Shown here one piece after another: positions 1,389-42,877 of a stretch of DNA of 42,877 nucleotides. Both the position numbers and the translations under genes were made by a program. Below the pieces are notes generated by a model, which saw only the letters and a program-made list of their open reading frames with translations, did no database searches and had not been told where the DNA came from. The stretch covers positions 1-42,877 of the IMG/VR virus record IMGVR_UViG_3300029702_000014; one strand, given 5' to 3'. Numbering within the stretch: the stretch's first letter is position 1; each line of letters begins with the position of its first letter. This stretch comes from a virus.

Positions 1389-1766
1389 ATGTGGCACAGA
1401 TTTAATCCAAACCCGCGCGGGAGCAGCGTCGGGGACTGCGTAGTGCGGGCGGTAGCTGCGGCCACCGGTCAGAGCTGGGAGCAGGCATATATTGCGCTGG
1501 CGCTCACCGGCTACGCCCTCGGCGATATGCCCAGCGCCAACCGCACATGGGGCGCATACCTCCAAAAACGCGGGTTCAAGCGCCGCATGGTGGAAGCAGA
1601 CTGCACCACCTGTTATACCGTGGCAGATTTTGCCCGGGAGTACCCGCGTGGCGTGTACGTGCTTGGCTGCTCCGGCCACGTTCTGACCGTGATCGACGGT
1701 GCGTGGTGGGACAGTTGGGACAGCGGCGCAGAATGCCCGATCTACTACTGGTATAAGGAGGAGTAA
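1389..1766 (+). CDS. Hypothetical 125-aa protein, tentatively a papain-fold Cys-His-Asp peptidase/amidase-like protein
   Basis: RBS AGGGAGGG lies 6 nt upstream. Cys sits in GDCVVRA, His in SGHVLTV and Asp in DSWDS, in papain-like order. This is motif reasoning only. Confidence 0.5.
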   Translation: MWHRFNPNPRGSSVGDCVVRAVAAATGQSWEQAYIALALTGYALGDMPSANRTWGAYLQKRGFKRRMVEADCTTCYTVADFAREYPRGVYVLGCSGHVLTVIDGAWWDSWDSGAECPIYYWYKEE

Positions 1767-1769
1767 ACG

Positions 1770-2219
1770 ATGCCTTACAATCCGTATGCGTATCAGATGC
1801 CGACATACTACGGCCAGCCAATGCCAGACAACCTCACTCAACTCAGGCAGGGAACAGGCTATCAGTCACCCATGATGCAGCAGCCGACAGCCCAGACAGC
1901 ACAAGCTGCGCCCTCCATCATCTGGGTGCAGGGAGAAGAGGGCGCAAAAGCCTATATGGTCGCCGCAGGCAACAGCGTGTTGCTGATGGACAGCGAAAAC
2001 AGCGCTTTTTACATCAAGAGCACCGACGCCAGCGGGATGCCGCTGCCTCTCCGCGTCTTTGACTACAAGGAACGCACCACGGCGACAAAAATGCCCCATC
2101 AGACGGCGCAGCAGCCCGGCGGGGAGTTTGTCACCCGAGCAGAGTTTGACGCTCTGGCAGCCCGCTGTGCGGCGCTCGAGAAGCAAGAGCCTGCAAAACC
2201 TGAAACGGAGGTCAAATAA
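1770..2219 (+). CDS. Hypothetical protein with a Pro/Tyr/Gln-rich N-terminus
   Basis: RBS AAGGAGGAG lies 6 nt upstream. The gene is 3 nt downstream of the previous stop. No recognisable catalytic motif. Confidence 0.7.
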   Translation: MPYNPYAYQMPTYYGQPMPDNLTQLRQGTGYQSPMMQQPTAQTAQAAPSIIWVQGEEGAKAYMVAAGNSVLLMDSENSAFYIKSTDASGMPLPLRVFDYKERTTATKMPHQTAQQPGGEFVTRAEFDALAARCAALEKQEPAKPETEVK

Positions 2220-2221
2220 GT

Positions 2222-2446
2222 ATGGCAAACTCTCTTTTTAACGCACTGGGCGGCGGTATGCCCGCCATGCCAAACCCTATGGGTCAGTTCGGGCAGATGA
2301 TGCAGCAGTTCCAGCAGTTCCGTGCAAACTTTCAAGGCGACCCGAAAGCAGAGGTGCAAAAGCTGCTGCAATCCGGCAAAATGTCACAAAACCAGCTGAA
2401 CCAGCTGCAGGCGATGGCGCAGCAGTTTCAGCAGTTTCTCCATTAA
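2222..2446 (+). CDS. Gln-rich 74-aa hypothetical protein
   Basis: RBS GGAGGT lies 9 nt upstream, tightly packed after the previous gene. QQFQQF motifs occur at both ends. Confidence 0.65.
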   Translation: MANSLFNALGGGMPAMPNPMGQFGQMMQQFQQFRANFQGDPKAEVQKLLQSGKMSQNQLNQLQAMAQQFQQFLH

Positions 2447-2509
2447 GTCGTAACCGTGGCCACGGTTCAAGCATAAAAATCATTCAAAACACACGAAAGG
2501 AGTACAAAA

Positions 2510-3286
2510 ATGTCTCTTTCTTCCGATTCTGCGGTTCTGACCATGCCCGTTCAGCCCGCAAACACCAACGGCAGCAACGGCTTTGGCTTTGGCAATGATG
2601 GCGCATGGTGGATCATCATCTTGTTCCTGTTTGCCTTCTGCGGCGGCTGGGGCGGCAACTGGGGCGGCAATGGCAACACCGGTGCCAGCGTCGTTGACGG
2701 CTACGTTCTGACCTCCGATTTTGCCAACATCGAGCGCAAGATGGATGGTATCAACAACGGCATGTGTGATGGCTTCTACCAGCAGGCGCAGCTTGTCAAC
2801 GGCGTGCAGCAGACCGTGAGCAACGGCTTTATGTCCGCAGAGATCAGCCGCGCAAACCAGCAGGCGGCGTTCATGCAGCAGCTGTTTGCCATGCAGATGC
2901 AGCAGCAGGAGTGCTGCTGCGAGAACCGCTCTGCCATTCAGGGCGTCAACTACAATTTGGCCACCCAGTCCTGCGAGACCCGGAACACGGTGCAGAACAC
3001 CACCCGGGACATCATCGACAACCAGAACCAGAACGCCCGCGCCATCCTTGACGCCCTGACCGCACAGCGCATCGAGGCAAAGGACGCAAAGATCGCTGAG
3101 CAGGGTCAGCAGCTGTTCGCAGCACAGCTTGCGGCATCTCAGGCAGCCCAGAACGAAACGCTCAAGGCCTACATGAGCGGTCAGCTGGCCTACTACAATC
3201 CGCGCCCCGTGCCCGCATTCCCGGTTCCTGCACCTTACCAGTACGGTAACTGCGGCACCGGTTGCGGCTGCGGCAGCTGCGCATAA
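2510..3286 (+). CDS. Membrane-anchored Gln/Asn/Cys-rich protein (one TM segment, Gly/Trp-rich flanks, ECCCE motif, CGTGCGCGSC tail)
   Basis: RBS AAGGAG lies 7 nt upstream. TM segment is AWWIIILFLFAFCGGWGG. A terminator follows at 3358..3385. Confidence 0.75.
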   Translation: MSLSSDSAVLTMPVQPANTNGSNGFGFGNDGAWWIIILFLFAFCGGWGGNWGGNGNTGASVVDGYVLTSDFANIERKMDGINNGMCDGFYQQAQLVNGVQQTVSNGFMSAEISRANQQAAFMQQLFAMQMQQQECCCENRSAIQGVNYNLATQSCETRNTVQNTTRDIIDNQNQNARAILDALTAQRIEAKDAKIAEQGQQLFAAQLAASQAAQNETLKAYMSGQLAYYNPRPVPAFPVPAPYQYGNCGTGCGCGSCA

Positions 3287-3357
3287 CCGAATCACGGCAA
3301 CTGACTGCAAATTGTATGTAGTCTGTTCAGCCCCTGAGCTGATTTTGCAAACCAGAG

Positions 3358-3385
3358 CGCCGGGGCAAAAGTCCCGGCGTTTTTC
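3358..3385 (+). terminator. Intrinsic terminator after the first cargo sub-operon
   Basis: Stem CGCCGGG / CCCGGCG (7 bp), loop GCAAAAGT, then TTTTT. Confidence 0.6.
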
Positions 3386-3404
3386 TATGAAAGGAGCCGA
3401 TAAA

Positions 3405-3827
3405 ATGGCCGAATTTTCTAATTCTAACATCGTCATCGTGGCGTCGGGTGAAAATCTTCCCCTGACAGAGACCGCGGTGAAAGCGCCTGCCTGCATCATG
3501 CACCGTGAGGGCAGCGGCCTTGTGACCATGCGGGGTCTGACCAATCAGTGCAAAGCACGCTTCAAGGTAAGTTTTGGCGGCAATATCGCCATTCCCACCG
3601 GCGGCACAGTTGGGCCCGTTTCCGTGGCGTTGGCTGTCGGCGGTGAGCCGCTGACCAGTGCGACTGCCATTGTCACCCCGGCGGCAGTCGAAAATTATTT
3701 CAATGTTTTCGTGTCCGCGTTCATCGAAGTGCCGCGCGGCTGCTGCGTGACCGTGGCGCTCAAAAATACCAGTACGCAGGCAGTCAGCATTGCAAACAGC
3801 AGTCTGATCGTTGAGCGGGTAGCATAA
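3405..3827 (+). CDS. Stand-alone BclA-C-terminal / C1q-TNF-like jelly-roll domain protein (140 aa, no collagen stalk)
   Basis: RBS AAAGGAG lies 8 nt before ATG 3405. Beta-strand-rich sequence ending NSSLIVERVA resembles the BclA C-terminus ...SASIIIEKVA as I recall it. Confidence 0.55.
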   Translation: MAEFSNSNIVIVASGENLPLTETAVKAPACIMHREGSGLVTMRGLTNQCKARFKVSFGGNIAIPTGGTVGPVSVALAVGGEPLTSATAIVTPAAVENYFNVFVSAFIEVPRGCCVTVALKNTSTQAVSIANSSLIVERVA

Positions 3828-3843
3828 GAAAGGAGATAAAGTC

Positions 3844-4245
3844 ATGCTGGATAAACTGAATCATCTGAAAGACGAAATGTGCGACGAGCTCATGGAACTG
3901 ACCGACAAAAAGAACCGCTCCCCGGGTGATGTTGAGATGATCGGCGAGATCGTGGACATCATTCTGGACATTCACCGCATCGAGGACTACTGCGAGGGCG
4001 GCGAGTACAGCCGTGCGGGCGAGTGGGAAGCTGACATGCGCGGGACTTTCGGCCGCGATGCCGGAAACGGTTACACCCGGGGCAACAGCTATGCCAACCG
4101 AGGCCGTCACTATGTGCGCGGGCACTACTCCCGCACGGATGGCCGTGAGCGCATGATCTCTGACATCGAGGACATGATGCAGGAAGCCACCGGCGCAGAG
4201 CGTGACGCCTACAAGCGTGCAGCTGACATCTTGCGCAACGCATAA
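3844..4245 (+). CDS. Hypothetical protein with helical ends and a central Gly/Arg/Tyr-rich segment
   Basis: RBS AAGGAGA lies 7 nt upstream. 133 aa. Confidence 0.7.
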   Translation: MLDKLNHLKDEMCDELMELTDKKNRSPGDVEMIGEIVDIILDIHRIEDYCEGGEYSRAGEWEADMRGTFGRDAGNGYTRGNSYANRGRHYVRGHYSRTDGRERMISDIEDMMQEATGAERDAYKRAADILRNA

Positions 4246-4263
4246 GGGAGGAGGGCGGCAGGC

Positions 4264-4593
4264 ATGGACATTGACGAGATCAATGAGCACATCCGAAAGC
4301 TCAAGTGCGAGGAAACCAGCTGGCAGAGCGTCAACAAGCTTGCCGCCCTCTGCACCGTGCGGGACGAACTGGAAGAAGCGCACGCACCTGAAACGCAGAC
4401 CCAGGCATTGCCGCCCGCGACTTATGCGGCGGCGTACTCCACGGCAGCGGAACCGCTAAGCGACTTTGTGGCGGCTGCCAGCTCTGTTCCTTTTGGCGGT
4501 CTGATGCAGGTACTTGACGAGCACATGAAGGCAATAAAGCTGGTGTACCCGAAAGAGTATGAGCTCGTAATGCGGAAGATAAGCGACTTGTAA
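4264..4593 (+). CDS. Hypothetical protein, last cargo gene before attP
   Basis: RBS GGGAGGAGGG lies 8 nt upstream. 109 aa. Confidence 0.65.
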   Translation: MDIDEINEHIRKLKCEETSWQSVNKLAALCTVRDELEEAHAPETQTQALPPATYAAAYSTAAEPLSDFVAAASSVPFGGLMQVLDEHMKAIKLVYPKEYELVMRKISDL

Positions 4594-4673: not shown

Positions 4674-4705
4674 TAATAATTATTCACGTTAAAACGCTAA
4701 ATAAA

Positions 4706-4755
4706 TTTGATTTGTAATCAGTGGGTTGCAGGTTCAACTCCTGTCACCAGCTCCA
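4706..4755 (+). other. attP core: 3' half of a tRNA-Thr(UGU)-like gene (anticodon arm through CCA)
   Basis: Anticodon loop TTTGTAA, variable loop GGGTT, T arm GCAGG-TTCAACT-CCTGT, acceptor 3' strand CACCAGC, then T and CCA. No 5' half is present. It lies next to the integrase. Confidence 0.7.
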
Positions 4756-4762
4756 AAAATAA

Positions 4763-4801
4763 ACGCACGAACGATAAAAAAGAATCGTCCGTGCGTTTTT
4801 C
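4763..4801 (+). terminator. Intrinsic terminator directly after the tRNA fragment; would terminate the reconstituted tRNA gene after integration
   Basis: 13-bp stem ACGCACGAACGAT / ATCGTCCGTGCGT with one mismatch, followed by TTTTT. Confidence 0.65.
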
Positions 4802-4846: not shown

Positions 4847-4867
4847 CTAACAAACAATCTAACAAAT
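4847..4867. repeat. Two CTAACAAA(C/T) copies on the P' arm
   Basis: Copies at 4847..4855 and 4859..4867, matching 4665..4673. Confidence 0.4.
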
Positions 4868-6000
4868 CAGTACTTCATCTTCTGCATTTCCTGCAACAAA
4901 TAGGCCGGGTCGTTGTGGGACACGTACTTGTTGGCCGTGGTGGAGAAATTTTTGTGCCCAAGAATGGCCTGCACGGCGGTCTTTTCCAGGCCGCACTCCA
5001 CCATCTTACTGCTGGCCGTGTGGCGCAGCGTATGCGGATGCACCCCCTCTATGTGGCACTCCTGCATCAAGGCCCGAAACTTTGTAGCCACGTTGCGCTT
5101 GTCCAGCTTTGTGCCGGCCTTGGATGGAATCAGCCACTCACAGCCGCTATCAAGCATCCAAAAGGCAATGATCTTGTAAATGGGCTCAAGGATGGGGATG
5201 ATACGGTTCTTGCCTGCTTCTGTCTTTTCACCGCCCTGCATGTACCGCTCTTTCAGGTGCACATCCTCGCAGCGCATGGAAAGCAGCTCGTCGATGCGCA
5301 TGCCGGTATAAAGCAGCACCATTGCGATTTGCGCCGTCTGCCCAAATTTCGGGTCATTCTGTCGGATGCTGATCTGCTCGATCTCTTGTGCGGTCAGTGT
5401 GCGCTCTGCTTTTCCTGTAGCCGCCGGGAGCTGCAGCAGCATGGCGTAATTTTTGTTTATGATGTCCTGCGCCATTGCCCACTCGCATATCTGACTGAAA
5501 AGCGTGCGTTGCTTTTCGCAGGAGCTGCGGGAGAGACCCTTTTCAACCATCTGGTCAATCACTTGTTGATAATCTGCCGCTTTCAAGTCCCGCAATTGTC
5601 GGTCGTATAGCGGCGCAGCCTTTGCATAGGCCAGCTCGTACCCCTTTTGCATGTCCGTGCTGAGCTTGTCAAATTTGGGCTGCGATTTCCATTGGACATA
5701 GGCATCCGCAAAGGTGCACTTCAGACGCGCTGCTGGCGTGTTCTGAGCGTTGTAAGCGTCCAACGCTTGTACGGCTTCGCCTGCTGTTTCAAACGTCCCA
5801 AGAACGTCCCTTTGGGCTGTAAGCGCCACATACGGTCTTGCCCGCGCTCCACTCAGTTTATACACGCTGCCGCTGCCCTTGGGACGGCGGCGCTTTTTTC
5901 TTTGCTGCGGGGCGGCTTCCGGCTGCTTCTTCCCGCACCACGGACAAAAAGAAGCACCATCCGGGATCTCTTTCCGGCAGCATGGTCTCACGCATTTCAT
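4867..6000 (-). CDS. int: Tyrosine recombinase (phage integrase) with an N-terminal zinc-ribbon-like CxxC...CxxC
   Basis: RBS AAGGAG lies 6 nt upstream. C-terminal catalytic signature HTLRHT...ILGHKNFSTTANKYVSH. N-terminus CCRKEIPDGASFCPWCG. Adjacent to attP. Confidence 0.9.
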   Translation of the reverse strand: MKCVRPCCRKEIPDGASFCPWCGKKQPEAAPQQRKKRRRPKGSGSVYKLSGARARPYVALTAQRDVLGTFETAGEAVQALDAYNAQNTPAARLKCTFADAYVQWKSQPKFDKLSTDMQKGYELAYAKAAPLYDRQLRDLKAADYQQVIDQMVEKGLSRSSCEKQRTLFSQICEWAMAQDIINKNYAMLLQLPAATGKAERTLTAQEIEQISIRQNDPKFGQTAQIAMVLLYTGMRIDELLSMRCEDVHLKERYMQGGEKTEAGKNRIIPILEPIYKIIAFWMLDSGCEWLIPSKAGTKLDKRNVATKFRALMQECHIEGVHPHTLRHTASSKMVECGLEKTAVQAILGHKNFSTTANKYVSHNDPAYLLQEMQKMKY

Positions 6001-14502: not shown

Positions 14503-15357
14503 ATGGCACTTACTCGTTCCGGCGCACCCGCGCCTACTTCGTCCGTTTCAAACGCACAGTCTCTGGCAAACCGTTCCGTCCAGAACGCCAACCGTGCAGG
14601 CAGCACTGCTATGCAGGCCGCATCCCCGTCCGTTCCGGTGGAGATCACGGCTGCCGATGGCCAGCACTTCACCGTGAGTTTTGGCGACGTGCGCAACTTC
14701 ATCTGCCCCAAGGCCACCGATTCTGAATGCAAAATCTTTCTGGAGACATGCAAGCAGTACAAGCTGAACCCATTTACCAAAGAGGCTTACCTGATCCACT
14801 ACGACAACAAGAACGATGACACCGCCAGCACCATCGTGCTGGGCAAGAACTGCTACATGCAGATGGCCGAGCGCAACCCCAACTTTGACGGCTTTGAAGC
14901 TGGCGTGATCGTCCTGACCGCAGATGGCCAGCTGCTGAACCGTGAGGGTTCCATTGTCTATGATGGAGACGGCGGCGAGACCCTTCTCGGCGGCTGGGCG
15001 AAGGTCTACCGTAAGGACCGTACCCGCGCCAGCTACGAGGAAGTCAAGCTCAGCGAATACGACACCGGAAAGTCTCTTTGGAATGGCAAAAAGGCTACCA
15101 TGATCCGCAAGGTGGCGCTGGTGCACGCTTTGCGTGAGGCGTTCCCGTCTACCTTCGGCGCTCTGTACGATGAATGCGAGGTGCGTGTGGATGCCGAAAG
15201 CACCGCCCGCGAGGTGTCGCCTGAAGAGCTGCCGGTGCTGGATCCTTACGAAGGCTCCCACCGCCACCGCAAGACGGCAGGCACCCTGATCCCTGCCCCG
15301 GATGCACCCTCTGTAGAGGAAAACGCCGATGACCCGTTTGATGGTGATGATGCATGA
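14503..15357 (+). CDS. recT: RecT/Bet-family single-strand annealing recombinase
   Basis: RBS GGAGGT. Motifs ECKIFLETCKQYKLNPFTKEAYLIHY and MIRKVALVHALREAFP. Confidence 0.85.
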   Translation: MALTRSGAPAPTSSVSNAQSLANRSVQNANRAGSTAMQAASPSVPVEITAADGQHFTVSFGDVRNFICPKATDSECKIFLETCKQYKLNPFTKEAYLIHYDNKNDDTASTIVLGKNCYMQMAERNPNFDGFEAGVIVLTADGQLLNREGSIVYDGDGGETLLGGWAKVYRKDRTRASYEEVKLSEYDTGKSLWNGKKATMIRKVALVHALREAFPSTFGALYDECEVRVDAESTAREVSPEELPVLDPYEGSHRHRKTAGTLIPAPDAPSVEENADDPFDGDDA

Positions 15358-15872
15358 TCGTCCAGACCAAGAACGGCGTCATGCTGCACGGCGAGATCGC
15401 CAAAGACCCGGTGCTCCGGGATGCCGGGCAGAAGCGGGTGCTGAAGTTTGACCTGAAAGCCAGCCGCACACAGGATGAATCCGGCAAATGGCAGAGCTTC
15501 TTTGTGGGCGTGAACCTCTGGCACGGCATCGACCAGTGGGATGGGATGCTGCAGAAAGGCGATCAGGTCACAGTTTTTGCGCAAAAGCTGAAAGAGCGGG
15601 AGTATAACGGCAAGGTCTATTACGACGTGGACGCGGATGATGTTCAGCCCGGTGGGCTGGTGACATTCCGCTGGCTGCAGCAGATGATCGACCTGATGGC
15701 ACAGCCCGGCCCGCCGCTGGAACCTGCAGAACCGGCAGGCCTGCAGGGCGCGCAGATGTACCCCTGTGAAACGCTTGCGGATTACGCACCGCACAGCACT
15801 GTCGCGCCTGAACCGGCTCCATCTACCGAGTATGACCCCATCAACGAAGACGCAGAAGATCTTCCCTTCTGA
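15354..15872 (+). CDS. ssb: Single-stranded DNA-binding protein
   Basis: OB-fold-like N-terminal pattern (HGEIAKDPVLR...FFVGVNLWHG...KGDQVTV) and an acidic tail ending EDAEDLPF. Confidence 0.8.
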   Translation: MIVQTKNGVMLHGEIAKDPVLRDAGQKRVLKFDLKASRTQDESGKWQSFFVGVNLWHGIDQWDGMLQKGDQVTVFAQKLKEREYNGKVYYDVDADDVQPGGLVTFRWLQQMIDLMAQPGPPLEPAEPAGLQGAQMYPCETLADYAPHSTVAPEPAPSTEYDPINEDAEDLPF

Positions 15873-15923
15873 TTTCGCAAGCTGTGCTATCCGGCTATAC
15901 GGGCGTGCAAAGGAGGTGAGCAA

Positions 15924-16721
15924 GTGGCAAAAGAAGAAAAAAAGTCGTTTGTCGTGTATCTGGATTGGTTTGACGCGCTGGAAGAGTACACGGATGCCGA
16001 AGTCGGACAGCTGATGCGAGCTTTGGCGAAACACGTCCGCACTGGTGAGAATCCAACGTTTTCCGACCGTGGAATGCGTGGGAACTTCCGTTTCATGTGC
16101 AATGGAGTGGATTCTGCTACGGAAAAGTACGAGAACGTCAAGCAAAAGCGCCGTGAAGCCGGAAAAGCCCGTGCAGCTCAAATGCAAGCAAACTCAGCAC
16201 ATGCTAGCACATGCTACCAAGTGCAAGCAAGTGGTAGCTATAATGATACTGTTACTGGAACTGTTACTGATACTGTTACTGATACTGTTACTGGAACTGT
16301 TACTGATACTGTTACTGGAACTGGAACTGTTATATCCCCTAACGGGGATATATATAATAGCGCCGCCCACGCCGCCGTTGACGTAGAACTTTCCAAGATC
16401 GTCCAGCATTATCAGCAGGCCGTCGGGGACTTCCCACGCTCTGCACTGGACAAGCTGCAGAAGTGGAGGCAGGAGTACAGCACAGAGATGATCCTGCTGG
16501 CGATTGACAAGGCTACAGAAGCCGGAAAACGCTCGTGGAACTACATCAACGGCATATTGTCCGGCTGGAAACGGGACGGCCTGCGCACACCGGGAGACGT
16601 GGAAGCCAACGAACAAAGCAGACAAGCCAGACCGAGGGGCAAGCAGCCAACCGAAACCGTAGACGACCAGCTTGCCCGGGTGCTGGCGAAGATGGACAGA
16701 GAAAGAGGGTTTGAGACATGA
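15924..16721 (+). CDS. Replisome organiser / DnaD-like replication initiation protein
   Basis: RBS AAGGAGGTG lies 5 nt before GTG. C-terminal DnaD-like motif KRSWNYINGILSGWKRDGLRT. Internal iterons are listed separately. Confidence 0.7.
   Translation: MAKEEKKSFVVYLDWFDALEEYTDAEVGQLMRALAKHVRTGENPTFSDRGMRGNFRFMCNGVDSATEKYENVKQKRREAGKARAAQMQANSAHASTCYQVQASGSYNDTVTGTVTDTVTDTVTGTVTDTVTGTGTVISPNGDIYNSAAHAAVDVELSKIVQHYQQAVGDFPRSALDKLQKWRQEYSTEMILLAIDKATEAGKRSWNYINGILSGWKRDGLRTPGDVEANEQSRQARPRGKQPTETVDDQLARVLAKMDRERGFET
16248..16352 (+). repeat. Six 12-bp iterons ACTGTTACTG(GA/AT) plus one partial copy, then a perfect 9-bp-stem hairpin and an AT-rich tract; candidate replication origin
   Basis: Copies start at 16248, 16260, 16272, 16284, 16296 and 16308. 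Hairpin TATATCCCC-TAAC-GGGGATATA is at 16331..16352, followed by TATAATAG. Confidence 0.6.
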
Positions 16722-17287
16722 CGCGGGAAGACGTGGCAAAGCTGATCCGCATGAATTTTGTACTGTACAAGCTGGGTTCCAAGCCGCTGACCGATGAGGA
16801 GATGCAGACCACCATCGATGTGTGGGCGTACCAGTTTGGCGACTATGACGGCGATACTGTCAAGCGGGCTTTTCTGGCGGCGAACCGGGTATGCGTTTAT
16901 CCGGTCACGGTGGCAGACATCTTCAAGCAACTTTCCCAGTGTCTTGACCCGTCCGCTGAATGGGAAGCTCTGGCTGTAGCGGCACGCAAGGCACAGACTT
17001 TTTTGAGCTGGCGCAAGTTCCCGATGGTGATCGGCATTGACGAAAAGGGCGGGCTGCTGCGTAGTGACGGACAGAAAGAACTGCAAGCCCTGTATGACCA
17101 ACTCCCCCCGGCGGCAAAATCCTATGCCGGAAGCGTGGGAGGGCTGGCAGAGCTGGCTGAAATTCCAGACCTTACATACCGCCGGGCCGAATTTTTGAAG
17201 CAGGCGCAGGCAGATATCACCACCGCCCCCCGTGAAGCTGCAAGGCTGCGAGTGAGCGAGCTGACAAGGAAGGAGATTGAAAAATGA
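16718..17287 (+). CDS. Putative helicase loader (G39P-like N-terminal domain)
   Basis: ATGA overlap with the organiser gene. N-terminus MQTTIDVWAYQFGDYDGDTVKRAFLAANRVCVYPVTVADI resembles the loader family. Confidence 0.5.
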   Translation: MTREDVAKLIRMNFVLYKLGSKPLTDEEMQTTIDVWAYQFGDYDGDTVKRAFLAANRVCVYPVTVADIFKQLSQCLDPSAEWEALAVAARKAQTFLSWRKFPMVIGIDEKGGLLRSDGQKELQALYDQLPPAAKSYAGSVGGLAELAEIPDLTYRRAEFLKQAQADITTAPREAARLRVSELTRKEIEK

Positions 17288-17619
17288 GCGAATATATCGA
17301 CCGCGAAAAAGCCATCGCAAAAATCAAAGCAGCATATTGCTGTGGCTGCGAAAATTACAACGGCGTAAGATGCCGCGCGTGTCAGATTATGGACGCGATG
17401 GATGTGCTGGAAGATGAACCGGCAGTGCCTGTGATTGACGCGGAATCTATGAAAAAGTACCTGACCGACTGGAAAGACGGGCTGGACGGGAGCGGAAATT
17501 GGGGGTACTCGTACGCAATCAGGGCAGAGCAAACGGTTCAGGTGCTGGATACCACACTGAACCACATTGGTTACATGCTCAAGGAGAACAGCGGGGTGCA
17601 GACCGATGGTAAAACTTGA
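17284..17619 (+). CDS. Hypothetical Cys-containing protein
   Basis: RBS AAGGAGA. 111 aa. Confidence 0.6.
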   Translation: MSEYIDREKAIAKIKAAYCCGCENYNGVRCRACQIMDAMDVLEDEPAVPVIDAESMKKYLTDWKDGLDGSGNWGYSYAIRAEQTVQVLDTTLNHIGYMLKENSGVQTDGKT

Positions 17620-17818
17620 GCCCTGCAAAGACTGCCCCGACCGACACCCGATCTGTCACGACAGCTGCCCACGGTACGCCGAGTACAAGCGTCAGCTGAA
17701 AGCGCAGCGCATCTACACCAACGGGAACCACGAGGCGGAGCGGATCAGCCGCAACGATTTCGACAAAGAAGGATGGATGGGAGGAAAACACCCGCCCAGA
17801 AAAAGGAGAAAAGCATGA
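17606..17818 (+). CDS. 70-aa Cys-rich protein
   Basis: Starts at internal ATG 17606. Sequence CKDCPDRHPICHDSCPRY. Confidence 0.45.
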   Translation: MVKLEPCKDCPDRHPICHDSCPRYAEYKRQLKAQRIYTNGNHEAERISRNDFDKEGWMGGKHPPRKRRKA

Positions 17819-20281: not shown

Positions 20282-20357
20282 ACTCTGGTAGCTCAATTGG
20301 CAGAGCGATGGTCTCCAAAACCGTAGGTTGCAGGTTCAAGGCCTGCCCAGAGCGCCA
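20282..20357 (+). tRNA. trnW: tRNA-Trp (anticodon CCA), CCA encoded
   Basis: Manual cloverleaf: D arm GCTC-AATTGGCA-GAGC, anticodon arm ATGGT-CTCCAAA-ACCGT, T arm GCAGG-TTCAAGG-CCTGC. The acceptor stem has an A1:C72 mismatch. Confidence 0.85.
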
Positions 20358-26727: not shown

Positions 26728-26804
26728 GCCGTTTTAGCTCAGTCTGGCAGAGCACCGGACTTTTAATCCGGGGGCCGTGGGTTCAAGACCCACAAGCGGC
26801 ACCA
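26728..26804 (+). tRNA. trnK: tRNA-Lys (anticodon TTT), CCA encoded
   Basis: Manual cloverleaf: acceptor GCCGTTT / AAGCGGC, D arm GCTC...GAGC, anticodon arm CCGGA-CTTTTAA-TCCGG, T arm GTGGG-TTCAAGA-CCCAC. Confidence 0.9.
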
Positions 26805-38202: not shown

Positions 38203-38877
38203 ATGGCTGAAATCATGGATGTGTCCCGGCATCAGGGCGCAATCAACTGGGACAAGGTCAAGGCAAGCGGCAAGGTGGACGGCGTGATGATTCGCGCCAT
38301 GGGCAACAGCGCAGAGGGCAGACCCAGTGCGCCCTACACTGACCCGCAGTTTGCCCGCAACTACGCAGAATGCAAGCGGCTGGGCATCCCCTGCGGCGTG
38401 TACGGCTACTTCAAAGCAGTCAGCCTGGAGCAGGCTGACAAGGAGCTTGCCTACTTCAAGAAGCTGCTCACCGGCCGGAGCTTTGAGCTGCCGGTGGCCG
38501 TGGACATCGAGGACGATGTGCAGCAGCCGTTGGGCAAGGCCGCGCTGACCGACCTGACAGCTTACATGCTGAGCACAGTGGAAAGCTGGGGCGTGTACGC
38601 TCTTCTGTACACCGGCCTGTGGTTTGGCAACGCCTTCCTGTACATGGGCGGCGCGGCGCTGAAGTCCTACGACGTGTGGCTGGCTGCCTACCGCACAAAG
38701 AAGCCTGCTCCCAGCTGGCCTTTTGGCATGTGGCAGTACACTAGCACGGCGCATATCCCGGGCGTTGTGGATGCAATTCCGGGCAAAGCCACCAACGTGG
38801 ACATGTCCCACGCATACAAGGACTATGCGGGTATCATCAGCAAGAAGGGTCTGACCCGTCTCCGGGAGGGCAAATGA
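38203..38877 (+). CDS. Endolysin, glycoside hydrolase family 25 muramidase
   Basis: RBS AAGGAGGA. N-terminal signature DVSRHQGAINWDKVKASGKVDGVMIRA. Confidence 0.85.
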   Translation: MAEIMDVSRHQGAINWDKVKASGKVDGVMIRAMGNSAEGRPSAPYTDPQFARNYAECKRLGIPCGVYGYFKAVSLEQADKELAYFKKLLTGRSFELPVAVDIEDDVQQPLGKAALTDLTAYMLSTVESWGVYALLYTGLWFGNAFLYMGGAALKSYDVWLAAYRTKKPAPSWPFGMWQYTSTAHIPGVVDAIPGKATNVDMSHAYKDYAGIISKKGLTRLREGK

Positions 38878-39263
38878 CCGAAAAAGAAGCTCTCCTGTGG
38901 GTGCTTGGCATCTTGGGCAGCCTGTGCGCTGCGGCCATCACCATCGACAAGGTGCTGGACATCATCCACAAGTACGTCAAAAAGGCACAGGCCCCCGACG
39001 ATGCGCAGAACAAACGCATTGACGCCATTGAAAAGCGACTGGCTGCGGTAGAAACCGTTTCCACACAGCACGCCGCGGCCCTTAGACGCGACATGACGCG
39101 ATTTGACGGCCTCGATGAAGAAATGCGTCTCGTACTCGTTGGCGTACAAAATCTTTTGGATTCGCAGCTGTCCGGCAACAACCGCGAAGGTATGCAAAAA
39201 AGCAAATCCGATATCAACAACTACCTGCTGAAAGGAGTAACAAGTCATGGAAGCAATGCTTAA
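38874..39263 (+). CDS. N-terminally membrane-anchored coiled-coil protein in the lysis cassette
   Basis: ATGA overlap with the endolysin gene. TM segment ALLWVLGILGSLCAAAITI. Confidence 0.6.
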   Translation: MTEKEALLWVLGILGSLCAAAITIDKVLDIIHKYVKKAQAPDDAQNKRIDAIEKRLAAVETVSTQHAAALRRDMTRFDGLDEEMRLVLVGVQNLLDSQLSGNNREGMQKSKSDINNYLLKGVTSHGSNA

Positions 39264-39582
39264 CTTTATCCCCACCCCTGTCGCCCTGGTTCTGATGGCC
39301 CTGGGCTTTGTGTCTCTGGCCGTTGGTGCCATTCGGCTGGGCTATAAGCAGTACGTCAAGCAGTGGGCACTGGAGCTCGTGACCCTGGCAGAAAACAGCA
39401 TCATGGGCAGCGGTCAGGGTGCCAAGAAAAAGGCCCAGGTCTTTGCGGCCCTCCGCTCCGCTCTGCCTGACTGGCTGAAGCCTTTCATCACCGATGAAGT
39501 GCTGGACAGCGTAATCGAAAAGGCCGTCAGCATGATGAAAAAGGCACTGGCAGAAAAGAAGCCTACCATCAACAAGGAGTAA
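39247..39582 (+). CDS. Holin, LL-H-like
   Basis: RBS AAGGAG. An N-terminal TM segment followed by an amphipathic helical domain ending IEKAVSMMKKA. Confidence 0.6.
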   Translation: MEAMLNFIPTPVALVLMALGFVSLAVGAIRLGYKQYVKQWALELVTLAENSIMGSGQGAKKKAQVFAALRSALPDWLKPFITDEVLDSVIEKAVSMMKKALAEKKPTINKE

Positions 39583-39585
39583 AGC

Positions 39586-41484
39586 ATGATTGAGCAAAGC
39601 GTATCTCTCGCATCCAATGGCGTCGTCAAAGTGCCCGGCTATGAGCAGATGGTGCGCTTTGGCTACACCAAGAACCGGGGCGTGTACCGCCTTACCGTCA
39701 CTGCCACCGGCGAGTGGGAAGGGCTGACCATCCGGGCGTTCTGGCACGTCCCGGACGGCAAAGACCCGGAATCCTCGCTGGTGGTGGACGGCTCTGTGGA
39801 CGTGCCCGCCAGCGTGACCGCACAGCCCGGCAATGGTTGCATCACCTTTGAGGGAAGCAACGGCACCAAGACCGTGACCAGCAAAGATCTGCGGTATCGT
39901 GTCAGCGCCAACAGCGGCACAGAGGACGGCGCAGAGCCAGAACCGGGTACCCCTGCATGGCAGCAGCTGGTGGATGCTGTCCACACCGATGCCACCACCG
40001 CAGAGCAGGCCAAGACCGATGCACAGACCGCCGCCCGTGAAGCCGCCGCCAGTGCGGACAATGCAGACCAGAGCGCTCAGGAAGCCGCTGACAGTTTGCA
40101 AGAGCTGAAGGACGGCATTGCAAACGGCGACTTCAAAGGCGAACAAGGCCCTCAAGGCCCCATCGGCCCTGTTGGCCCGCAGGGCGAACAAGGCCCTCAA
40201 GGCCCCACAGGTGCTACCGGAGCCACTGGTCCGCAGGGTGAAACTGGTCCCCGTGGTGAGCAAGGGCCGCAAGGCATTCAGGGTGAGCGTGGTCCACAGG
40301 GCGAACAGGGCCTGAAAGGCGACACCGGCGACGTTGGGCCACAGGGGCCTAAAGGTGACATTGGCCCGGCAGGTGCAGACGGCAAAGATGCCCCGCAAAT
40401 TGATGACACCACCGTGACCGACTCTGCCCCGTGGAGCAGCAAGCACATCATTGATATGCTCTGTCCGCCGCTGGAAGAAAGCGGCAACCCCGTTGTGTGC
40501 TACCCGGTGGCGGGCTATCCGCTGGGGGTGACTGCCAGCTGGGAGCCGACGCAGGAAGGAAGTGGTGACCCATCACCTGACAATGTTCGCCCGATTAAGG
40601 GCAGGGACAGCGTGACGGTCGAGCGGTGCGGGGAAAACCTATGGAGTTTTGGGAATGTTAGTTTCATGCGATACAAAGAGATATCAACAAACTATCCTGC
40701 TGGTAAATATGTGCTTTCTTGCGAAGTAGAAACCGAATCAACATCCGATACTGTCCAAGTTGGCCGGTTTGTTGATGGTAATTGGAAATACTCACAAGAA
40801 CGGAAAAACAAACGAATTATAATTTTGATTAGCGCAAGTGTTGGAATTTCTGCTTTTCGGTTTTATTCTGGTTCGTCTCCGGCGGATCATAGCAATACAA
40901 CATACAAAAATATCCAGCTGGAATTAGGGAACGGCGCCACCACCTACGCCCCATACACCGGCCAAACCGCCATCCTCACACTGCCCCGCACCATCTACGG
41001 AGGCACGGTGGATGCAGTGACTGGAGAAAGCGGCGAAAACGCCAAAATCATTGTAGTCGATGGAGATGATATTAAATTTGTGTCAACTTCACAGAACAAG
41101 TATTGGAACTTACCAATGAGAAGCGACTCTGGGGCTTCTGGTATTTTGGAATCAAGCCATTTTAGGAGTGGAACATTCTCTCTTAATAAAAACTACGAAT
41201 TCATATTTACCCAGCCGACGATACTGACGGGTTTATTTTCGTCCGTTGATGAACTTAACGCTTACTGCGCCGCCCAGTACGCAGCAGGAACCCCTGTGCA
41301 AATCGCTTACAAGCTGGCCAGCCCCGTCCCCATCACGGCCACTGGCGCACAGCCCATCTCTTCTCTGAGCGGCGCAAACACCGTCCTGACCGATGCAGAC
41401 AGCGTGACGGTGACCGGCAGAGCAGACCCCATCAAACGCATTACGGACCTCGAGGACGCAGTAGCGTCCATGACAACGAACTAA
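39586..41484 (+). CDS. Collagen-repeat tail fibre / receptor-binding protein encoded downstream of the lysis genes
   Basis: RBS AAGGAG. 632 aa with 28 uninterrupted G-X-Y triplets. The C-terminal region is compositionally mosaic. Confidence 0.8.
   Translation: MIEQSVSLASNGVVKVPGYEQMVRFGYTKNRGVYRLTVTATGEWEGLTIRAFWHVPDGKDPESSLVVDGSVDVPASVTAQPGNGCITFEGSNGTKTVTSKDLRYRVSANSGTEDGAEPEPGTPAWQQLVDAVHTDATTAEQAKTDAQTAAREAAASADNADQSAQEAADSLQELKDGIANGDFKGEQGPQGPIGPVGPQGEQGPQGPTGATGATGPQGETGPRGEQGPQGIQGERGPQGEQGLKGDTGDVGPQGPKGDIGPAGADGKDAPQIDDTTVTDSAPWSSKHIIDMLCPPLEESGNPVVCYPVAGYPLGVTASWEPTQEGSGDPSPDNVRPIKGRDSVTVERCGENLWSFGNVSFMRYKEISTNYPAGKYVLSCEVETESTSDTVQVGRFVDGNWKYSQERKNKRIIILISASVGISAFRFYSGSSPADHSNTTYKNIQLELGNGATTYAPYTGQTAILTLPRTIYGGTVDAVTGESGENAKIIVVDGDDIKFVSTSQNKYWNLPMRSDSGASGILESSHFRSGTFSLNKNYEFIFTQPTILTGLFSSVDELNAYCAAQYAAGTPVQIAYKLASPVPITATGAQPISSLSGANTVLTDADSVTVTGRADPIKRITDLEDAVASMTTN
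40138..40389 (+). repeat. Collagen-like (G-X-Y) x 28 coding repeat
   Basis: Counted in the translation, from GEQ GPQ GPI ... to GAD GKD. Confidence 0.95.
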
Positions 41485-41732: not shown

Positions 41733-41951
41733 ATGGCAAGCACTACATACCGCCATCTCGGTGACGTCACTGGGATGTTCGCCGCACAAGAGCAATTTCG
41801 GCACGTCACGAAAATGGTGACAAAATGTCACCGGTTTGCCGTGCTTGGCAATATGGTACGCAACGCCGGGCAGCTGCCGCAGCCTTTTTGGCTCGGTGCT
41901 GCCTGTGGCGGCGGCTCGTGTAGTGCTGCCCGCTGCGCTGCAAGGACTTGA
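41733..41951 (+). CDS. 5' part of a probably frameshifted regulator gene (frame A)
   Basis: A strong RBS, AAGGAGGA, lies 4 nt before ATG 41733. After the T5 run at 41885..41889 this frame becomes low-complexity (GAACGGGSCSAARCAART). Confidence 0.5.
   Translation: MASTTYRHLGDVTGMFAAQEQFRHVTKMVTKCHRFAVLGNMVRNAGQLPQPFWLGAACGGGSCSAARCAART
41761..41831. repeat. Five GTCAC/GTGAC pentamers, including the perfect palindrome GTGACGTCAC
   Basis: Pentamers at 41761-65, 41766-70, 41805-09, 41817-21 and 41827-31. Confidence 0.6.
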
Positions 41952-42129
41952 CCGGCAGCAGATGACAGCAGCCATCAAAAGCGCACCGCTTGGGAGGGTA
42001 GACCGTAAGATAGCCTTACTGCGGTACGTTGAGCGGCTCCCGCTGCCGGACATTGCAGCACAGACACATTACAGCCGGACGGCGATAAGCTACCGGCTGA
42101 AAGGCATTGAAAAAATGCTGAATGCGTGA
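41836..42129 (+). CDS. 3' part (frame B, +1 relative to frame A) encoding a sigma-70 region-4-like HTH
   Basis: VDRKIALLRYVERLPLPDIAAQTHYSRTAISYRLKGIEKML. There is no RBS before the TTG at 41836, and frame B is closed upstream at 41818. Confidence 0.55.
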   Translation: MPCLAIWYATPGSCRSLFGSVLPVAAARVVLPAALQGLDRQQMTAAIKSAPLGRVDRKIALLRYVERLPLPDIAAQTHYSRTAISYRLKGIEKMLNA

Positions 42130-42251: not shown

Positions 42252-42452
42252 AACAAATCCTCCCGGCCTCTCGGAGAAGCGCATTAGGGTGGATATTTGC
42301 CAGCTAGCCCAGTGCTTTATCTGGGAATGAAAAAAGCGGTTGCCAGATAGGTGCCGGCCAGTCTCCCGCCCGCCTAATTGCAGTGCGTACCATGTGAGAG
42401 ACGCATAAAACCCCCGGTGTTCCGTTTGGAGCATCGGGGGTCTTTCTATTTT
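42252..42452 (+). ncRNA. Candidate ~200-nt non-coding transcript between the extended -10 promoter and the bidirectional terminator
   Basis: The only RBS-less + strand ORF here is 7 codons long. Internal hairpin CCCAG-TGCTTTAT-CTGGG. TTGCCAG(C/A)TAG occurs twice. Confidence 0.3.
42410..42452. terminator. Bidirectional intrinsic terminator; ends the leftward AP2 operon and the candidate ncRNA
   Basis: Stem ACCCCCG / CGGGGGT, flanked by ATAAAA on the left and CTTTCTATTTTTT on the right. Confidence 0.6.
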
Positions 42453-42877
42453 TTCTCTTTTTTGATTTCTTCGAGACGTCTTGCAAGCTCTTCTTCCCAT
42501 CCCTCATGTTCTTTTAGAAATGGGGCGTATATCAGCTCTTCAGCTGCTTTGCGGGCCGCAACGGCTTCCTCGATTGTATCATGGGTTCCAAGATATGTCT
42601 TGTGTCCTTTAAAGCAAATTACAGCGCGGTAACGATTTTTGTCTTTGAAAACGCCACTGTGCCCTGTGGTCGAGTTTTGATTAACCTTCCCGCTAAGACG
42701 CGACTTTACAGATACAAGGCTTGATCCATCCACATCCGCTTCACGATGAATCGTATCAGAGGCGAGCTTGACGTTATTGGTACACTTCTTACATTTTGAA
42801 ATTTTTTTCACTTGAAACAGACGCATATCAGACTTTCTGCCACAAACAGGGCACAATGCGGTACAAAAGAGGTCATT
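42446..42877 (-). CDS. AP2-domain DNA-binding protein, C-terminal part. Its 5' end continues at 387..1 through the circular junction; the last 99 nt here duplicate 1..99.
   Basis: AP2-like segment HSGVFKDKNRYRAVICFKGHKTYLGTHDTIEEAVAARKAAEE. In frame with the ORF that starts at 387. Confidence 0.8.
   Translation of the reverse strand, partial: NDLFCTALCPVCGRKSDMRLFQVKKISKCKKCTNNVKLASDTIHREADVDGSSLVSVKSRLSGKVNQNSTTGHSGVFKDKNRYRAVICFKGHKTYLGTHDTIEEAVAARKAAEELIYAPFLKEHEGWEEELARRLEEIKKEKK
42779..42877. repeat. Right copy of the 99-nt terminal overlap
   Basis: Identical to 1..99. Confidence 0.95.

Follow-up and report, generated by a model that had tools for sequence, protein, structure and literature searches.

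We analyzed a 42,877-nt stretch of viral DNA (IMG/VR record IMGVR_UViG_3300029702_000014, positions 1 to 42,877), hereafter called the window, with the focus on a cluster of seven genes at 1389-4593. A preliminary description, made from the letters alone, had read this cluster as cargo lying next to the phage attachment site. All seven plus-strand open reading frames (ORFs) that it had listed were present, and they are referred to here as g1 to g7 (lengths in amino acids, aa):

1389-1766, plus strand: g1, 125 aa, putative minimal papain-like enzyme
1770-2219, plus strand: g2, 149 aa, matches phrog_21718
2222-2446, plus strand: g3, 74 aa, matches phrog_22984
2510-3286, plus strand: g4, 258 aa, the hallmark protein of the cassette, matches phrog_16490
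3405-3827, plus strand: g5, 140 aa, stand-alone jelly-roll protein, BclA-C/ExsF/TNF-like by its predicted fold
3844-4245, plus strand: g6, 133 aa, low-complexity centre
4264-4593, plus strand: g7, 109 aa, Ala/Glu/Leu-rich, called helical in the preliminary description

Each of the seven ATGs is preceded at 6-10 nt by an AGGAG-type Shine-Dalgarno site, in agreement with the strong ribosome-binding sites described earlier. The ratio of nonsynonymous to synonymous polymorphism (pN/pS) was 0.06-0.13 for each of the seven genes (49-78 close relatives), and all seven were intact in 64 of 74 close IMG/VR relatives. We concluded that these are genuine genes under strong purifying selection, not chance ORFs. 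The GC content at third codon positions (GC3) of the cassette, 0.65-0.78, is that of the phage backbone and structural genes. Recent foreign import was considered and rejected because neither GC nor GC3 of the cassette is deviant; the neighbouring gene 42446-42856 has a GC3 of 0.40.

Six of the seven genes matched PHROG families, every one of unknown function. Pfam and NCBIfam scans of all seven proteins gave nothing meaningful, profile searches of the g1-g6 alignments against PDB sequences returned nothing below E 0.09, and a PADLOC-DB scan of the seven proteins (E ≤ 0.1) produced only one spurious 12-bit match, to g3. No lysis-family homology was found for g1-g7 in Pfam or PHROG, and the phage has a separate endolysin and holin. 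The Pfam, PHROG and NCBIfam scans bore out the earlier statement that no replication, packaging or lysis function is recognizable, and residue counts of g2, g3, g4 and g6 agreed with the compositions given for the products. A literature search, including Faecalibacterium prophages and BclA/C1q-type prophage proteins, found no description of the cassette. We concluded that it is a phage accessory cassette without a Pfam, NCBIfam or defence-catalogue entry.

The cassette is conserved outside this genome in the same gene order, far beyond what the preliminary description could know. At least 7,897 clusters at 90% identity were counted for g4 and at least 8,000 for g5, and more than 590 IMG/VR contigs carry g4. 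Searching with g4 (31-67% identity) recovered 36 GTDB loci from Oscillospiraceae, Lachnospiraceae and others (individual loci are designated by L numbers below). The order g1-g2-g3-g4-g5-g6-(g7) was kept in ∼30 of the 36, at 30-70% amino acid identity, and most of the rest are cut by contig ends. The same order is found in Dulem virus 33, where the cassette lies between lysin and integrase, and in Dulem virus 35. Butyrivibrio virus Ceridwen carries all seven genes in this order (hidden Markov model, HMM, search), in a genome with no integrase and with single-strand gene orientation; it is an isolated, plaque-forming lytic phage (PMC7372960). The constant core is g2-g3-g4, with g5-g6-g7 usually present and g1 usually first, and g2-g7 were found only in cassette-bearing phages. 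Variant cassettes include some without g1, some with another small beta-rich protein for g5, and one with a DUF7841 protein for g6/g7.

In every case the cassette has the orientation of the structural and lysis genes, and in most loci it follows the lysis genes. The preliminary description had placed it as the last block before attR. This was correct for the integrated relative L007, in which the cassette is the final phage block before attR, for L118 and L120, where a tRNA-Pro gene and then host genes come after the cassette, and for L109, where a tRNA-Ser gene is followed by a LepA-like gene. As a fixed site it did not hold: in Eubacterium sp. 14-2 and its relatives L114-L117, in Dulem virus 35 and in L106 the cassette lies inside the head module, between MuF-like minor capsid and scaffold/major capsid genes.

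AlphaFold (AF2) models of g1 and g5 were searched with Foldseek. The g5 model, built from an alignment of 140 homologues, reached a predicted local distance difference test score (pLDDT) of 92.2 and a predicted template modelling score (pTM) of 0.83. Its PDB matches were 9h38 (F-BclA-CTD, CTD being the C-terminal domain), 1wck and 3tyj (BclA), 9h3d and 7r1m (ExsF) and 8d02 (BxpB), with template modelling scores (TM) of 0.70-0.76 and E values of 1e-6 to 1e-5 for BclA/ExsF/BxpB; TNF ligands ranked next. H33, R34, C113, C114 and R138 are invariant. No Pfam (BclA_C) or NCBIfam match was obtained for g5 at E ≤ 1, and a 24-homologue profile against PDB sequences came back empty. The earlier call of a BclA-C/C1q-like protein is thus supported at the level of fold and not as membership in the sequence family; as modelled, g5 is a BclA-C/C1q/TNF-like jelly-roll. 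In BFVD the nearest matches come from uncultured gut phages and are likewise stand-alone proteins, 130-145 aa long.

The BclA C-terminal domain, ExsFA and BxpB form trimers in the Bacillus exosporium. Like ExsF and BxpB, g5 is a stand-alone protein of ∼140 aa without a signal peptide. Unlike BclA/ExsF, it shares only 10-14% sequence identity with them, has no collagen-stalk fusion and is carried by phages of non-sporulating hosts. ExsF is an anchor for collagen-like proteins and binds to Pro-rich peptides at their N-termini (PMC12357932); Pro-rich segments are found in g2 and g4 of the cassette. Of 17 loci with enough upstream sequence (∼10 kb), 6 have a collagen-like ORF within that distance ahead of the cassette; the window, counted separately, has one too. 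We did not adopt the idea of g5 as the anchor of a phage collagen fibre, as this co-occurrence is not obligate. None of the seven cassette proteins matched the exosporium-leader NCBIfam models; the collagen-repeat protein was scanned with Pfam only.

The g1 model had a pLDDT of 97. Cys17, His97 and Asp108 are invariant in 26 diverged homologues and at least 90% conserved in 66 representatives at 50% identity. In the model, Cys17 sits at the N-terminus of helix 17-26, His97 at the start of strand 98-102 and Asp108 in the next strand (105-108), with the His 80 residues after the Cys. Nearly all Foldseek matches were papain-like (Josephin-2, staphopain, AvrPphB, Tae4, C39), all of them weak (E ≥ 0.24, TM ≤ 0.48). 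The best match was the deubiquitinase Josephin-2 (E 0.24), and the highest TM (0.46-0.48) was to the C39 double-glycine peptidase domain (LahT150, 6mpz). Searches with g1 against Pfam, NCBIfam and PDB sequences were empty, as was a Pfam scan of 66 family members. Of the fold calls made earlier, the jelly-roll of g5 was upheld; for g1 the canonical Cys-His-Asp layout supports a papain fold, and a significant structural match was not obtained.

We take g1, on the strength of its model, to be a new minimal papain-like family (∼1,632 representatives at 50% identity) shared with Bacillus phages. Stand-alone homologues occur in the early regions of Bacillus Tsamsa/Kirov-like phages and of Geobacillus phage GBK2, and homologues of lower similarity in Lak megaphages and Pseudomonas phages. 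Like C39, Josephin and staphopain, g1 (∼125 aa) has its Cys at a helix N-terminus and His/Asp on strands, and in most members the short conserved leader at the start of g3 ends in GG. It differs from characterized papain-like families in lacking a significant match (best E 0.24, TM below 0.5) and in occurring also without g2-g7, and from C39 in that it is not fused to an ABC transporter, none is encoded in the cassette, and the GG of g3 is not invariant. A C39-type g1 that processes a double-glycine g3 was appealing by size, triad spacing and TM, and was rejected because the GG is variable, there is no exporter and some cassettes have no g1.

The hallmark protein g4 contains 11% Gln, 10 Cys and a hydrophobic segment (GAWWIIILFLFAFCGGW) with Gly/Asn flanks. 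It also has a Gln-rich region, read as helical, a CCC motif that is invariant, and a C-terminal tail rich first in Pro and then in Cys. The N-terminus of g2 is rich in Pro, Tyr and Gln; a small beta-rich core (IWVQGE...YIKS.D.SGMP) is conserved, and the protein ends in a helix. g3 is 23% Gln, with a conserved N-terminus MxNPLFxALGGG and an FQGDP turn, and is probably helical to judge from its sequence. In g6, a conserved N-terminal HKLTDTIKNIDKI motif region, read as helical, is followed by an Arg/Gly/Tyr/Ser-rich low-complexity centre with YSR repeats and a conserved C-terminal segment; a Pfam scan of 26 family members gave nothing. g7 is the least conserved member, and its copies in relatives were found by HMM alone. 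The N-termini of the seven proteins, read by eye, show no signal-peptide-like sequence, and a hydrophobic segment is present only in g4. A spanin-like g4 (anchor, helical rod, Pro/Cys tail) was considered and rejected, since the hosts are monoderm bacteria and no homology turned up.

The control region of the cassette contains the following elements:

1207-1224 and 1249-1266: 18-nt direct repeats TAyACGCGTTGCGTGCAA, in the divergent promoter region, a variable segment
1273-1307 (element to 1313), plus strand: terminator-like hairpin, 15-bp stem and T-run, 83 nt ahead of the g1 ATG
41836-42129, plus strand: small sigma-70 region-4-type helix-turn-helix (HTH) protein, candidate cassette regulator

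The repeats overlap a strong leftward promoter (TTGACA-17-TACACT, 1231->1203) that serves the minus-strand gene 828-1154. Segment 800-1312 is not conserved with relatives, and the conserved block begins at 1313. The repeats and the upstream terminator reported earlier exist, but operator control of the cassette is doubtful because the repeats overlap the leftward promoter in the non-conserved segment. Leader hairpins with T-runs stand ahead of g1 in ∼20 of 31 loci, some merely 36-43 nt from the ATG, which points to a leader attenuator rather than a plain upstream terminator.

Within the cassette, CGCCGGG-N8-CCCGGCG at 3358-3379 makes up a hairpin, and TTTTT comes next on the plus strand (element to 3385), 25 nt ahead of the g5 ATG. 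An equivalent GCGGCGGGG...CCCCGCCGC hairpin with a T-run follows g4 in ∼14 diverged relatives. The division of the genes into two blocks at 3358-3385 was therefore confirmed, but the hairpin is too near the g5 ATG to leave room for a promoter and is more likely an internal attenuator than the operon boundary proposed before. The g4-g5 attenuator most likely sets the dosage of g1-g4 versus g5-g7.

In at least 10 diverged loci, the gene immediately ahead of the cassette encodes a Sigma70_r4 mini-protein. In the window, three minus-strand genes (42446-42856, 401-718 and 828-1154) stand between the sigma-r4 gene and g1, across the circular junction. This minus-strand segment varies among close relatives and looks more moron-like than the cassette does. 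The gene at 42446-42856 is AP2/HNH-like and foreign in its GC3 of only 0.40. Ahead of g1, and in L115 between g1 and g2, a conserved pair of genes was seen that encodes a sigma-r4 mini-protein and a small membrane protein with a single pass (C-terminal motif QWSQFDTVVVD...NYVQGDN.GGI.NG):

L105 7724-8343: membrane protein/sigma-r4 pair
L107 287-876: membrane protein/sigma-r4 pair
L112 191-697: membrane protein/sigma-r4 pair
L115 8273-8901: membrane protein/sigma-r4 pair

Judged from sequence, this pair resembles a cassette-dedicated anti-sigma/sigma pair. The Ceridwen cassette is flanked on both sides by strong terminators.

Positions 1-99 of the window are identical to 42779-42877. This 99-nt exact overlap indicates a complete, circularly closed genome of ∼42,778 bp in which the end genes are neighbours. 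The phage is a temperate siphovirus, with these landmarks:

4706-4756: attP core, a tRNA 3' fragment; in lysogens attR (the prophage-host junction) is at its right end
4761-4798: bidirectional hairpin in the gap separating the attP core from the integrase gene end
4867-6000, minus strand: tyrosine integrase, adjoined by a repressor-like HTH gene
38203-38877: GH25 endolysin
39247-39582: Phage_holin_6_1 holin
39586-41484: collagen-repeat (GXY) protein, 632 aa, after the holin and between the lysis genes and the cassette (Pfam scan)

The tRNA-derived attachment site described earlier was borne out by L007, which is collinear with the window to 4756-4757 and continues in host DNA; Rfam places a partial tRNA at 4688-4744. 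The hairpin at 4761-4798 can act as a terminator for cassette transcripts only when the phage is circular or replicating; in the prophage it cannot do so. The phage has tRNA genes for Trp (CCA) at 20282-20357 and for Lys (TTT) at 26728-26804, the latter inside the structural region. The endolysin shares 78% nucleotide identity with that of Faecalibacterium phage FP_Lugh, and we consider the host to be probably Faecalibacterium for this reason. Faecalibacterium and Butyrivibrio are not known to sporulate.

Our preferred explanation, which we put forward tentatively and with less than even confidence, is that the cassette is a mobile, separately regulated late-gene module whose products form a g4-centred multi-protein assembly in productive infection. 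It builds on the observed genes, their conservation, synteny and selection, the two folds, the conserved hairpins and the genomic positions. What we infer from them is when the genes are expressed, that their products assemble, what each protein does and what biological benefit results; any physical contact between the products is pure conjecture. The seven genes would be one copy of a widespread, horizontally mobile phage cassette with g4 as its hallmark, placed at the end of the late block or inside it in siphophages that infect gut and rumen Clostridia. Expression in productive infection would start from a dedicated control region, the sigma-region-4 HTH gene followed by the leader hairpin, and the products, which lack signal peptides, would assemble in the cytoplasm as a multi-protein complex. 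In this complex g4 may be the hub, with its hydrophobic segment as a membrane or self-association anchor, a Gln-rich helical rod and a Pro/Cys tail; g2 and g3 may be Gln-rich partners from the g4 sub-operon. A BclA-C/ExsF-like trimer of g5 could act as hub or cap, and g6 and g7, beyond the g4-g5 attenuator, could be low-complexity adaptors at lower dosage. The putative Cys-His-Asp enzyme g1 might trim, deamidate or cross-link a partner or a host target.

Several observations weigh against this explanation. The upstream terminators, the dedicated regulator and the prophage-edge position also fit an autonomously expressed moron. No sigma-70 promoter was recognizable in the conserved 75 nt before g1 (1313-1388), which implies a phage-specific promoter or read-through of the 1273-1307 hairpin. 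The variants L137 and L108 lack g1 and have a different small beta-rich protein in the place of g5; exchanges of this sort are seen more typically in host-interaction or conflict modules than in structural machines of fixed make-up. Cassettes without g1 (L104, L108, L137) show that g1 is dispensable, and its tie to g2-g7 may be loose since lone copies are present in the early regions of unrelated phages.

The main alternative is lysogenic conversion or superinfection exclusion, in which the cassette is expressed from its own prophage promoter and a g4-anchored complex changes the envelope or blocks incoming phage. Toxin and virulence genes of streptococcal and staphylococcal prophages are the familiar morons or lysogenic-conversion cassettes at the lysin-attR junction. 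The cassette resembles these in its niche (in the temperate members), in flanking terminators and in lacking virion or replication homology, and it is the final block before attR in real lysogens. The terminators insulate it from the late operon, small dedicated HTH regulators accompany it, sometimes with an anti-sigma-like small membrane protein, g4 is the sole member with a membrane-type segment, and sister phages hold swapped-component variants at the same site. Unlike the lysin-attR morons, however, it keeps seven genes in fixed order over deep divergence under strong purifying selection, has a backbone-like composition, and is present intact in a lytic, integrase-less phage and in head modules of three lineages. 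A prophage-end site and flanking terminator-like hairpins, as in morons, were thus found; the sporadic distribution, atypical composition and temperate-only carriage of morons were not. Six of the seven products have no export signal, and there were no PADLOC matches. We regard conversion or exclusion as rather unlikely on balance.

The classic moron, spore-surface and defence readings of the preliminary description were only partly supported. A conversion moron confined to lysogens is not supported, given the complete cassette in the integrase-less, plaque-forming Ceridwen. Nor is the spore-surface role supported for this phage, since the probable host Faecalibacterium is non-sporulating and another carrier infects Butyrivibrio; the spore-surface version of conversion is removed with it. 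A known defence system is not indicated, as PADLOC gave no meaningful match. Ceridwen carriage, late or head placement, co-orientation with late genes, backbone composition and the host all argue against a lysogen-only moron and a spore-surface role.

In another alternative the products would be virion-associated: trimers of g5, possibly joined by the Gln-rich or low-complexity proteins, would decorate head or tail, hold fibres in place, or enter the particle during packaging and be ejected from it. The hydrophobic segment of g4 would enter the membrane of the target cell, with g1 as an enzyme injected alongside. The recurrence of the cassette between MuF-like minor capsid and scaffold/major capsid genes fits this proposal, as do the late-gene context and the lack of signal peptides. 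TNF/C1q-like jelly-rolls are common in viral fibres and knobs; the phi812 central spike knob is one example, and BFVD contains collagen-tailed proteins of this kind. Collagen-like proteins are anchored by ExsF (PMC12357932), and the phage has a gene for a collagen-repeat protein of 632 aa. We nevertheless consider a virion role unlikely: the cassette moves among phages with unrelated structural modules, a collagen-like gene is nearby upstream in just the minority of loci counted above, and flanking terminators with an own regulator are unusual for structural genes.

With still less confidence, as a quite improbable idea, we mention a previously unrecognized phage-built cytoplasmic structure made from exosporium-like parts, namely an ExsF/BclA-fold trimer, self-associating Cys-rich and Gln/Tyr/Pro-rich proteins, and a papain-like maturation or cross-linking enzyme. 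Such a structure could be a virion coat or matrix or a membrane-tethered lattice, under the control of the mini-sigma regulator and the leader attenuator. A counter-defence or host-takeover role, with g1 as an isopeptidase- or deamidase-type effector and the other genes as unrelated accessories travelling along, is very unlikely, for although lone g1 homologues occur in virulent or unrelated phages (Kirov, Tsamsa-like, GBK2, Lak megaphages), among early genes, and the best structural match of g1 is a deubiquitinase, the Foldseek matches are not significant, and g2-g7 always occur together in fixed order with overlapping or abutting codons, which indicates one functional unit.

The lineage and the cassette are very common in human gut metagenomes, and the likely hosts include the keystone commensal Faecalibacterium. 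Held together across phages of Oscillospiraceae, Lachnospiraceae and Butyrivibrio, the cassette is a large coherent piece of the functional dark matter of gut phages. It brings stand-alone proteins of predicted BclA-C/ExsF fold into phages of non-sporulating hosts, and its control elements recur as a set: mini-sigma gene, leader hairpin and internal attenuator. Because a cultured carrier exists (Butyrivibrio phage Ceridwen), its function is directly testable. If the exosporium-like structure is real, phages of human-gut Clostridia would commonly carry a morphogenetic or accessory system of a new class.

Further observations concern individual relatives. L137 (IMGVR_UViG_3300045988_029156) is a 59-kb sister phage with a variant cassette at the same site (14519-17655), composed of g2', g3', g4', a 123-aa Cys-rich, beta-rich protein and a 212-aa Arg/Glu/Tyr-rich DUF7841 protein, without g1. 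It shares lysin, holin, collagen and sigma-like genes with the window phage, and a downstream ParA-like gene on the minus strand suggests a plasmid-type prophage. The g1 homologue of GBK2 (L125, 26471-26860) stands among small early genes beside RecE/RecT, and that of Bacillus phage Kirov (gp050, L126) near a Ser/Thr kinase and MazG; some records label stand-alone g1 homologues 'putative peptidase'. Homing-endonuclease-like (HNH or zinc-ribbon) insertions were found repeatedly, in different relatives, in the g3/g4 or g4/g5 gaps; the one in L001 is annotated as an endonuclease, and the four others were judged by eye from motifs:

L001 8560-9111: homing-endonuclease-like insert
L083 10816-11655: homing-endonuclease-like insert
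L094 11118-11780: homing-endonuclease-like insert
L099 4017-4685: homing-endonuclease-like insert
L111 1757-2614: homing-endonuclease-like insert

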